Shown here piece after piece: positions 9,001-12,000 of a stretch of 23,125 nt of DNA (position 1 is the stretch's first letter; every line of letters begins with the position of its first letter). A program made the position numbers. The DNA lies in the IMG/VR virus record IMGVR_UViG_2778261064_000008, one strand, 5' to 3'. The DNA is from a virus (lineage: Duplodnaviria; Heunggongvirae; Uroviricota; Caudoviricetes).

Positions 9001-12000
9001 GAGCGGTCTCCGTGCTCCAGCCCTTCGGCAGTATCTGCCCCACAAACATACTCTTCATCCGGATCCGGCAGTTCCCATACCAGCAGATAATTCATCAGCG
9101 TCCGCTGCAACTCGTTTTTATTTCCTTCACGCAGAGACTGAGCTTTAGTCTTCGCTCCTGTAACAGGTTCAATGTCATAAACAATCATCGGTGGCGAACA
9201 GAATGATTCTGCCTGCAACGTACTTTCGGCACTGAACACACGTCGTCCGGACGTCAGAAACGCCTCCTGTGGCGTTGAGGGAAACTCCTGCTTCATTTCC
9301 TCACGCTGTTCAGTTTCCTTACTGATGTACCACTGCTTCTGCTCATCGGTAAGCGTGATGTTCATTGCCTTCTCAACCGCAGAAAAATACGTCATTTTTT
9401 CCCGTGACATCTTCAGCCCGCTTTCAGGCACTCTGGCGCTGTATTTAGGATCCTGCCACCATGCGTAAAAATGGAATTTATAATCCTGTGCCGTCAGCAA
9501 TAAGCCTGATGCAGTGATCTCCTGTGCACGGTTACTCATATCGTAAAAATCACCACCCACGCCTTCAGCCGTGGATTCATCAAAAATAATGCATTCATCA
9601 GAGACGGCATTAAGCGTACCAGTTCGCAGCTCTTTCGCCTTAGCCGGATATTTCGCGCAAATTTTGCCGTGCTCTGAGATATGCAGGCGCTGCACCGTAC
9701 CTGAGCGAAATGAGGTTGCCACCTGAATACTCGAGCCGTGACCAAACAGGATATAGCCACCGCTGGCACCGCTACGACGTTCAACGATGGTGAATGAGGC
9801 TCTCAGCCAGTCAGGGAGATGATCAAACGGTACAGCAATTTTTGTGCGGAAAATTTCACTGGCAGCCTGTTTATCCTGAGCGACGATCCCGCATTTGAGA
9901 TGCGGAATGAATAATGCCTGGTCGAGAAGATAAATATCAATGGCTGTGGAAAATCCCAGCTGGCGCGCTTTCAGGATAATATTTTTATTGTGCATGCTCC
10001 GGAACAACTGGCGCTGCGCCGGTCGCATTCTGAAGGTGACCAGTTCACCTTTTTCGTTCTGTATTTTGTAGAGATGATTGAGCCGCCACCAGGGATTGCT
10101 CAGTTTAGTCATGATGAAAAGACGTTGTTCGGCTTCAGTCATTTCTGACGGCTCATCACATCGCGGTTCATTCTTCCGGAATGTCATCCAGTCTCCCCGA
10201 ATTACTCATTTCATGCAGCGATGACACGATGTCACTGACAGGCGTAACAACGCCCCGACGCTGGCTGGTCAGAATATCGGTTTCAGCTCTGAGTTTATCT
10301 CTGGCGGCGTTGATTCTTTCCCGGTCAGCACGAAGTTTTGGTGCTGTCTCAGCCAGGACGTCCAGTGTCAGCAAAGAACGTTCAATTGATTCTATACGGG
10401 CAATATTCCGGTCAAGAGCCTGTTCGGCTTTAAGTATTTTGTCGTACAGAGCTACCCGTGTTTCCACGTCAGCCGCCTCTTTCAGGTCGGCGAACATCTT
10501 TTTCAATGTTCCTGTTACTGAAAGTGCGCGGGCACGGGTAAACACCAGTTCATCGGCAAGTTCCATTCCGACTGCATCATCTATGAGGTTATCTGCCTCG
10601 AGATACTTCGCGTATCCACGGTGTCTGACGGCGTGGGTGTTACGCTGAGAAAAAGCATTTGAAGGTGGCAAAAGTCTGGAACCACGAGTCCGTTTCGTTT
10701 CTGCCAAATTTGCGCATTTTTCATCACAACCATCATCGCCTGAAGGCTCGTCATGACTGGAGTTGCCGTCAGATTTCTGCGCACTTTTTTGATCATCAAT
10801 TTGCGCATTTTTCTGCGCACTTTTCTCTGTATTTCTGGGGGAGTGTTTGCGCAGTTTAATGTACCGCCGAGCCGTGTCATAACTGATATTGTTCTGACGG
10901 CACCAGTCCTGAAGCTTTATGCCGGTTTTGACATGTTCGCGTCGAAATGCCTGCTCCAGCTTTTTCCAGTCCAGCTTTGCCATGTCACCTTCTGACGTTC
11001 TCTGTTAAAAACTGATGCACAATGACTGCTGTAAATTTTCAGATTTCACACAGCAGAGCCATGTCTGATTAATGTTTAACCTTATTTAGGTTATATCCGC
11101 TTCATTCCACTACAGCACCAGATAGGCTGCCTCGCGGATAAATGCTAAAGTCTCCTGATATAGAAACCCGTCGCCACATCGAGCGCTGATCAACATTTGT
11201 ATATTCACTGCGACAGAAAAAATTTATTTTATTGAATAGTTAGAAATACAGAATTGCATGCTTTATAAGCATTGACGTACACTTCATTTTTAGCAATATA
11301 TTCTGTTCTCATAGATGATCAGCCCTGCATGCACTGCCGGACACCGTCGGCAATTTTACAGACCTAAGAGGCAATACCAAAAAGCTAACGCGCTTTATCA
11401 AGACTTGAGCAACCAACCAATAAAAAAAGCACCAGTACCGCTACCAGTGCCCATTTCGTCGTTGTTCACAGCATTCTGTGTACCCACTGTATTTCGCATC
11501 ATATCACCACGTCAGACAATCCTTAAGGATTACATAAGATTTACGCATAATAATGCCCATTTTCAACACAGACAAGGGAATTTATATGTTAAATCAAACG
11601 CTAACAAAATCTCTTCTTATATTTTTACTTGTCATAATCGTTTCTGTATCCATCATATACATTGTAAGAACTCCAGTCAGACTTGATGTGAATGATGTCA
11701 CTGAGATTAACCAGAAACATCCCATTATTTTTCTCATCCGGCATGGGGAAAGATGCGATCGCTCCCAAAGAATATGTCTTTCAGCACATGAGGGAATCAC
11801 AGTAAACGGAGCTAACAAAGCTCAACAATATGGAGATAAATTCAGAAGAATGTTTCCATACTACAGTCTCTATTCTACAGACACACTCCGAACAATGCAG
11901 ACAGCCACTTTTTTTTCGGGAGGTAAGACAGCAACTATTCCGGACATATCGACATGTGATGATAACGCAGTAAATAACATCCTTAAAATATCAAAATCAG

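Follow-up and report, generated by a model that had tools for sequence, protein, structure and literature searches.

The window analyzed here, the whole 23,125-nt stretch of IMG/VR virus record IMGVR_UViG_2778261064_000008, is a lambdoid, Shiga toxin (Stx)-type prophage that carries a moron gene for an Ais/PmrG-like histidine phosphatase. Upstream of this gene lies the direct repeat CTTAAG-GATTA-CATAAG, and we conclude from the DNA that the site is probably the operator of a BasR/PmrA-dependent promoter borne on a mobile moron cassette. The conclusion is carried by the sequence of the site, its geometry, its rarity, its conservation among related prophages, and the identity of the cargo gene, all of which were directly observed.

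A preliminary description of this DNA had noted two hexamers, 5 bp apart and close to the PmrA/BasR repeat, about 50 nt before the Ais-like ATG. Both points hold: the repeat occupies positions 11522 to 11538 and ends 47 nt before the ATG at 11586. The hexamers form a YTTAAK-type direct repeat with exact 5-bp spacing, and hence an 11-bp periodicity (Table 1). Half-site 2 is followed by the 7-bp ATTTACG and then by CATAAT (11546-11551), the element that had first been proposed as −10-like. This hexamer is present, but the −10 element in the canonical register is AATAAT, which starts 10 bp rather than 7 bp after the box. We rejected CATAAT at 7 bp because only the 10-bp register is good in all prophage lineages and in the Escherichia coli K-12 BasR promoters. 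The earlier worry that the spacing from the box to the −10 element was too short disappears with AATAAT, whose gap is the same as that in the K-12 promoters. At the −35 position stands AGGATT (11526-11531), which matches TTGACA at a single position, as expected for an activator-dependent promoter. The box thus overlaps the −35 position, and its distance to the −10 element is fixed; this placement was read from the sequence and not from mapped starts.

We compared this arrangement with those of five K-12 BasR promoters (Table 2). Their boxes, read from the genome, agree with published descriptions of the PmrA site as a CTTAAG/xTTAAT pair 5 bp apart (PMC3973317), as CTTAA-N5-CTTAA, derived from ugd, yfbE, yibD, and yjdB (PMC1525208), and as the consensus (C/T)TTAA(G/T)-N5-(C/T)TTAA(G/T) (PMC10729948). 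A −10-like hexamer starts exactly 10 bp after the box in 5/5 of them. The arnB box has the same 10-bp gap in 15 genomes of Escherichia, Citrobacter, Salmonella, and Intestinirhabdus, and every hexamer there has the form TAnnnT. With such a geometry, half-site 1 covers the −35 position, in agreement with the report that pbgP, whose promoter is PmrA dependent, has its −35 element at a PmrA half-site (PMC4660055).

The site is also rare. Based on a matrix built from the five K-12 boxes, a check that the preliminary description had proposed, positions 11522 to 11538 rank first of 46,218 window positions, with 14.1 bits; the footprinted Klebsiella pneumoniae pbgP box has a close score on the same matrix (15.2 bits). 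Among simulated upstream regions of 150 nt with the local composition, 0.85% contained an equally good box, and ∼0.01% (∼1e-4 per upstream region) contained a box with a −10-like hexamer exactly 10 bp downstream. When both strands of enterobacterial and prophage DNA totaling 484 kb were scanned for the box with its −10 element after a 10-bp gap, this composite was found only at arnB orthologues, pmrR, ugd, and prophage ais-like genes. The second-best full-matrix match in the window, TTTAAGATTTTGTTATT (17195-17211, plus strand; 13.4 bits), sits between an open reading frame (17342-17875, minus strand) and an STnc100-like element, with the genes on the other strand. This match fails a threshold based on the half-sites alone and is probably due to chance.

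A protein search recovered a diverse family of Ais-like proteins, mostly from E. coli, with 43 to 84% identity to the window protein, and we took their loci from viral contigs, genomes, and assemblies. The box is at the same place in every family member found in the lambdoid lysis-terminase slot. Eight lineages, with proteins 55 to 84% identical, keep both half-sites, the N5 spacing, the 10-bp gap, and the −10 element (Table 2); the gap is constant, whereas 46 to 53 nt separate the box from the ATG. Half-site 1 and the −10 element each have a mean pairwise identity of 0.86, and half-site 2 has one of 0.77; the values are lower in the spacer (0.52), the gap (0.60), and the upstream and downstream flanks (0.34 and 0.37, respectively). 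In a MAFFT alignment of 10 relatives, the positions without variation are TTAA in half-site 1, TAA in half-site 2, four positions in the −10 element, one G in the Shine-Dalgarno sequence, and the ATG. The one variable position of half-site 2 is position 2 (A, G, or T), where L096, L131, and L113 carry the full 6/6 consensus (CTTAAG or TTTAAG). The window's deviating base falls at this position, the same one that deviates in the footprinted K. pneumoniae half-site, CCTAAG.

The carrier phages have different endolysins (lysozyme, GH108, or M15 peptidase) and different terminases (Nu1/GpA, Terminase_2, Terminase_4 with HNH, DUF1441, or the window's own type), and a plasmid copy flanked by insertion sequences (IS) keeps ATTAAG-N5-TTTAAG at the usual distance. 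Because the box is kept across these differing modules and on the plasmid, it moves together with the gene rather than with the phage backbone, and the differing modules also argue that it is not a packaging or lysis signal.

Table 1. Coordinates of the promoter parts, the moron gene, and neighboring features in the window
Feature	Position	Strand	Remarks
BasR/PmrA half-site 1, CTTAAG	11522..11527	+	6/6 consensus; predicted span of about −38 to −33, over the −35 position
5-bp spacer, GATTA	11528..11532	+	Length invariant, sequence 52% conserved
BasR/PmrA half-site 2, CATAAG	11533..11538	+	5/6 consensus; A for T at position 2
−10 hexamer, AATAAT	11549..11554	+	Exactly 10 bp after box; overlaps CATAAT by 3 bp
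Predicted transcription start	11559..11562	+	Suggested by −10 position; 5′ untranslated region of ∼25 nt
Shine-Dalgarno-like AAGGGA	11574..11579	+	6 nt upstream of ATG 11586; one G invariant in alignment
Ais/PmrG-like histidine phosphatase gene (moron cargo)	11586..12167	+	193 amino acids (aa); profile matches, RefSeq start
GC-rich hairpin between Ais-like gene and Rz	12226..12243	Both strands fold	U-tract on minus strand only
Rz gene	12248-12706	−	Followed by endolysin and holin genes (−)
Degenerate phrog_7528 lipoprotein gene	11319-11504	−	60 aa, lipobox LLVGC; three in-frame stops
Small terminase gene	10168-10983	−	
Large terminase gene	8481-10187	−	

Table 2. BasR/PmrA boxes and −10 hexamers in the prophage lineages (protein identity to the window protein in parentheses) and at E. 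coli K-12 promoters
Locus	Half-site 1	Spacer	Half-site 2	Gap	−10 hexamer
Window	CTTAAG	GATTA	CATAAG	10 bp	AATAAT
L107 (84%)	CTTAAG	GATTA	CGTAAG	10 bp	AATAAT
L093/L094/L129 (about 76%)	CTTAAG	GAT[T/C]A	CATAAG	10 bp	AATAAT
L109/L130 (72%)	ATTAAT	TGCCT	CATAAG	10 bp	TATAAT
L096/L131 (68%)	CTTAAG	GATTC or GACTC	CTTAAG	10 bp	AATAAT
L113/L114 (64%)	CTTAAG	GATTT	TTTAAG or TTTAAT	10 bp	AATAAT
L101/L134 (61%)	GTTAAG	ATTTT	CTTAAT	10 bp	TATATT
L118/L133 (55%)	GTTAAG	ATTT[T/C]	CTTAAT	10 bp	CATAAT
arnB (K-12)	CTTAAG	GTTAA	GTTAAT	10 bp	TAAAAT
eptA (K-12)	CTTAAG	GTTGG	CTTAAT	10 bp	GAGCAT
pmrR (K-12)	CTTAAG	GTTCA	CTTAAT	10 bp	CATACT
waaH (K-12)	CTTAAT	AGTTT	CTTAAT	10 bp	TAAAAC
ugd (K-12)	CTTAAT	ATTAA	CTTAAT	10 bp	TATTCT

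Several observations weigh against control by BasR. YTTAAK-N5-YTTAAK with one mismatch or fewer has a single match in the window, with 0.91 expected by chance in 23 kb, and this bare consensus match does not reach significance over the window as a whole. On the full matrix, the box reaches 14.1 bits versus 19.7 to 23.6 bits for the K-12 sites, and half-site 2 has A where T stands in all five K-12 boxes. The geometry of the K-12 comparison promoters rests on sequence and not on experimental start maps, and the prophage promoter copies share ancestry, so their conservation does not amount to eight independent events. L109/L130 combines a weak half-site 1 (ATTAAT) with a perfect TATAAT, and its promoter may, judging from these hexamers, be largely constitutive. 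Lastly, TTAAGG (11523-11528) and CATAAT, which match TTGACA at 3/6 and TATAAT at 5/6 positions with an ideal 17-bp spacing, also allow a reading as a weak sigma-70 promoter in its own right and may be a source of basal activity.

The sigma-70 pair, the L109/L130 hexamers, and the statistics of the bare match would all suit an ordinary constitutive or H-NS-modulated sigma-70 moron promoter, with the likeness to a BasR box an accident of AT-rich DNA. We consider this unlikely. Such a promoter leaves unexplained the conserved half-site 2 and the exact N5 and 10-bp distances amid decayed flanks, and the lineages with GTTAAG…CTTAAT lack a comparable −35 element 17 bp before the −10 element. Furthermore, the composite motif otherwise occurs only at known BasR promoters in the 484 kb searched. 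The top matrix rank of the site, the 10-bp gap to the −10 element, and the conservation in eight lineages make the box credible despite the nonsignificance of the bare pattern.

It is more doubtful still that another regulator binds the repeat and BasR is uninvolved, whether PhoP, QseB, or ArcA, of the OmpR/PhoB family, or a phage-encoded protein. An 11-bp-periodic direct repeat is typical of that whole family, and QseB and PmrA are reported to share the arn promoter (PMC10729948). A two-mismatch match to the PhoP box, GGATTA-N5-GATTTA (11527-11543), overlaps the site; however, such matches are at chance level in the window (5 found versus 4.8 expected), and this one ends just 2 to 5 bp before the −10 element, and L096 and L113 do not retain it. 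No sequence near the gene matches the published QseB consensus, which is likewise matched at chance level in the window. We therefore rejected both the PhoP and the QseB boxes, their matches being at chance level and misplaced or absent. The bases that are conserved are exactly the BasR-specific TTAAG/TAAK cores.

The preliminary description had also named TTGACG/TATATT (11272-11302) as a possible alternative start, in which case the main transcription would come from upstream and the box region would be a mere 5′ leader. Both hexamers are good ones, and the surrounding segment (11150-11505) is 75 to 79% identical in relatives. Nevertheless, the evidence disfavors this start, and we regard it as very improbable. 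The pair has a 19-bp spacer and was not listed by a promoter scan that allowed 16 to 18 bp, and the −35 hexamer is not conserved, TTGACG being replaced by CTGGCT, CGGACA, or TTGGCG in relatives. The conservation of the segment is explained by a minus-strand gene for a 60-aa lipoprotein, assigned to phrog_7528 (E value, 1e-34), through which a transcript from this promoter would run antisense for ∼285 nt. This gene is degenerate here but intact in L113 and L130, and the copy in the window adjoins the moron divergently. A minus-strand hairpin with a T-run at 11427-11452 was considered as a terminator insulating the cassette and rejected, as it codes for the signal peptide WALVAVLVLFLLVGC of the degenerate phrog_7528 gene.

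Based on profile matches, we assign the moron product to the branch-1 histidine phosphatases, Ais/PmrG subfamily. The window protein scores 203.3 bits against the subfamily model NF011945, above its curated cutoff of 142, and 28.9 bits against PF00300 (His_Phos_1; cutoff, 21.7). The catalytic RHG and HNH residues (R52, H53, H147, and H149) are invariant in a 29-sequence family alignment. At 114 bits, the protein falls below the cutoff of 170 for the PmrG equivalog model NF052369, and it is 43% identical to K-12 Ais. These two results indicate that the prophage protein is a paralogue of PmrG/Ais and not a transplanted chromosomal ais, so the substrate of the prophage enzyme may differ. Its predicted role is that of a lipopolysaccharide (LPS)-core phosphatase, and a hydrophobic N-terminal segment is consistent with export or membrane anchoring.

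The ATG at 11586 is the start used by RefSeq in identical prophages; a longer open reading frame from the in-frame ATG at 11553 would begin inside the −10 region. Two database proteins (P0001 and P0011; 204 aa) begin at that upstream ATG, and the Prokaryotic Genome Annotation Pipeline picks the 193-aa start. The phage GER2 record (L001 6896-7168) annotates just a 90-aa C-terminal fragment of the gene. At least 22 IMG/VR viral contigs and several prophage backbones encode the Ais-like protein. A search of PHROGs v4 gave no match for it, so phage-oriented annotation would miss the gene.

The surroundings of the gene are those of a moron. It opposes the late genes in a slot between Rz and the small terminase subunit, from which it is separated by a 600-bp gap. 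Conserved phage modules flank this accessory gene, which some related phages carry and others lack. Positions 11000 to 12250 are 99.5% identical to Escherichia phage GER2. Among 5,426 complete E. coli genomes, 43 match positions 11250 to 12200 at ≥95% identity, 40 of those at ≥99%; the carriers include O104:H4 outbreak-lineage strains and Stx2a phage from bovine isolates. A detectable copy of the Ais-like gene was found in only 83/5,426 E. coli genomes. The hairpin between the gene and Rz is predicted to be a probable stop for non-antiterminated late-strand transcription and, probably, a weaker one for the moron transcript.

An Rfam search of positions 10950 to 12300 for a divergent small RNA or leader element found none. 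Rfam matches above the gathering score in the window, all on the minus strand, lie at 16805-17003, 20146-20333, 21759-21947, and 22985-23125. They include STnc100 (143 bits), two pairs of C4 antisense RNA and isrK, and a sok antitoxin RNA that is 5′ truncated at the window edge.

Outside the lambdoid lysis-terminase slot, including on plasmids, the box is absent or a damaged remnant, the IS-flanked plasmid copy excepted. The boxless genes lie directly 3′ of AraC-type regulators near fimbrial genes, by an EAL-domain gene and a serine protease autotransporter (SPATE) gene, or near afaD. In L115, L116/L117, L125/L126, and P0069, Ais-family genes are directly downstream of AraC-type regulators and near a fimbrial usher gene or afaD, and L116 has a remnant, CCTAAGGATTCCAAGTAAAT, that resembles a box from which 2 bp have been deleted. 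The annotation of one family member, "transcriptional activator AfrS," suggests that this enzyme family either has been mistaken for a fimbrial regulator or functions as one. Distant members (43 to 50% identity; L120-L124) follow an EAL-domain gene and have no BasR box; three of them (L122-L124) have a Peptidase_S6 (SPATE) autotransporter gene within a few kilobases. One protein of this distant group, P0035, has 817 indexed blocks in the assembly collection. In Salmonella enterica (L111/L112), an IS3-family element immediately upstream of the Ais-like gene has replaced the box region, and only the last ∼35 nt before the ATG are homologous to L096/L113.

We also scanned 18 chromosomal ais/pmrG loci. 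In 15 of them, the ais-arnB spacer has one strong box, which is oriented toward arnB and is separated from the ais start by about 200 bp or more; the scan of the other three gave no strong box. The scanned ais-arnB spacers thus held no box of ais's own in that gene's orientation. We rejected inheritance of the prophage box from chromosomal ais because the sole spacer box points toward arnB. The preliminary description had suggested that the prophage gene is wired into the host regulon that controls chromosomal ais. As far as the DNA can tell, that connection stands; ais is reported to be BasSR activated, with its promoter bound by BasR (PMC12419081). The design of the moron promoter, by contrast, is of the arnB/eptA type and not the chromosomal ais arrangement. 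Since the TTAA core is palindromic, the arnB box can be read toward ais, as ATTAAY-TTAAC-CTTAAG (L002 3814-3830 and orthologues L004-L021). Several species have a weak xAxACT hexamer 10 bp after this reading, where K-12 has TAGACG, and a single arnB box might, on these motifs, serve both divergent genes.

We infer BasR binding, activation, the transcription start, and a physiological effect from the features of the site, and the following sequence of events is proposed. BasS would sense Fe3+, Al3+, or mild acid and phosphorylate BasR, and a phosphorylated BasR dimer would bind CTTAAG-N5-CATAAG head to tail, in place of the missing −35 element. It would then recruit sigma-70 RNA polymerase to AATAAT in a class-II-like manner, as at arnB, eptA, pmrR, waaH, and ugd. 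Transcription from near position 11560 would allow the Ais/PmrG-like phosphatase to be made from the repressed prophage, so that in the lysogen the gene would be expressed with the host LPS-remodeling regulon, independently of prophage induction.

The BasSR/PmrAB regulon governs resistance to Fe3+, Al3+, and polymyxin-type peptides. If BasR drives the gene, a prophage of pathogenic E. coli adds an LPS-modifying enzyme to this regulon. This would be a clear case of a moron that arrives with a ready-built operator for a host two-component system, and the box, the 10-bp gap, and the −10 element would provide a testable rule for BasR targets on mobile DNA. Envelope charge could then differ from strain to strain by prophage content, possibly along with sensitivity to phages or antimicrobial peptides.

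A broader idea, offered tentatively and with considerable doubt, is that the Ais-like gene and its box form a mobile, "sensor-plugged" LPS-core remodeling cassette of lambdoid phages, including O104:H4-type Stx phages, that has lost the box and adjoins AraC-type regulators on plasmids and at fimbrial/adhesin loci. If this were true, a lysogen would alter core phosphorylation when BasS senses gut iron or acid, with effects on metal or cationic-peptide tolerance or on phage receptor availability, and one accessory enzyme would have been rewired repeatedly to different regulators.

The closest known systems are the promoter of arnB (pmrH/pbgP) in E. coli and Salmonella and those of eptA, pmrR, waaH, and ugd. 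They share with the window a YTTAAK repeat, N5 spacing, 10 bp to the −10 element, and a poor or absent −35 element, and half-site 1 of the window is identical to those of arnB, eptA, and pmrR. The window differs in half-site 2 (CATAAG versus [C/G]TTAAT) and in that its promoter lies on a prophage moron and is predicted from sequence, whereas the K-12 regulon promoters belong to the core genome. The K. pneumoniae pbgP box, CTTAAT-ATTAT-CCTAAG, has been footprinted and structurally characterized (PMC3973317, PMC2565834, and PMC4660055), and activated full-length PmrA binds both of its half-sites with a Kd of 45 nM. Like the window box, it combines a strong half-site 1 with a half-site 2 that has a deviating position 2 and a final G (CCTAAG versus CATAAG). 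Unlike the window, it serves another gene in another species, and the Klebsiella promoter adds a PhoP box, which has no credible equivalent here. Chromosomal ais (pmrG) of E. coli and Salmonella encodes an enzyme of the same family (NF011945; 43% identity), but it lacks a box of its own that is oriented with the gene, and the prophage protein is a paralogue.

Our literature searches for a prophage ais under PmrA control found no relevant paper. Prophage genes under host two-component systems do exist, for example, the PhoP-dependent prophage genes of Salmonella. The lambda bor-type morons of lambdoid phages resemble the window in that a lone accessory gene is set against the late operon, in the lysis-terminase slot, with its own promoter and expression from the repressed prophage, both of which are predicted here. 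The window differs from them in its cargo, a predicted LPS-core phosphatase, and in its predicted control by BasSR/PmrAB. The kind of promoter is thus well known; its carrier, a prophage moron, is unusual.

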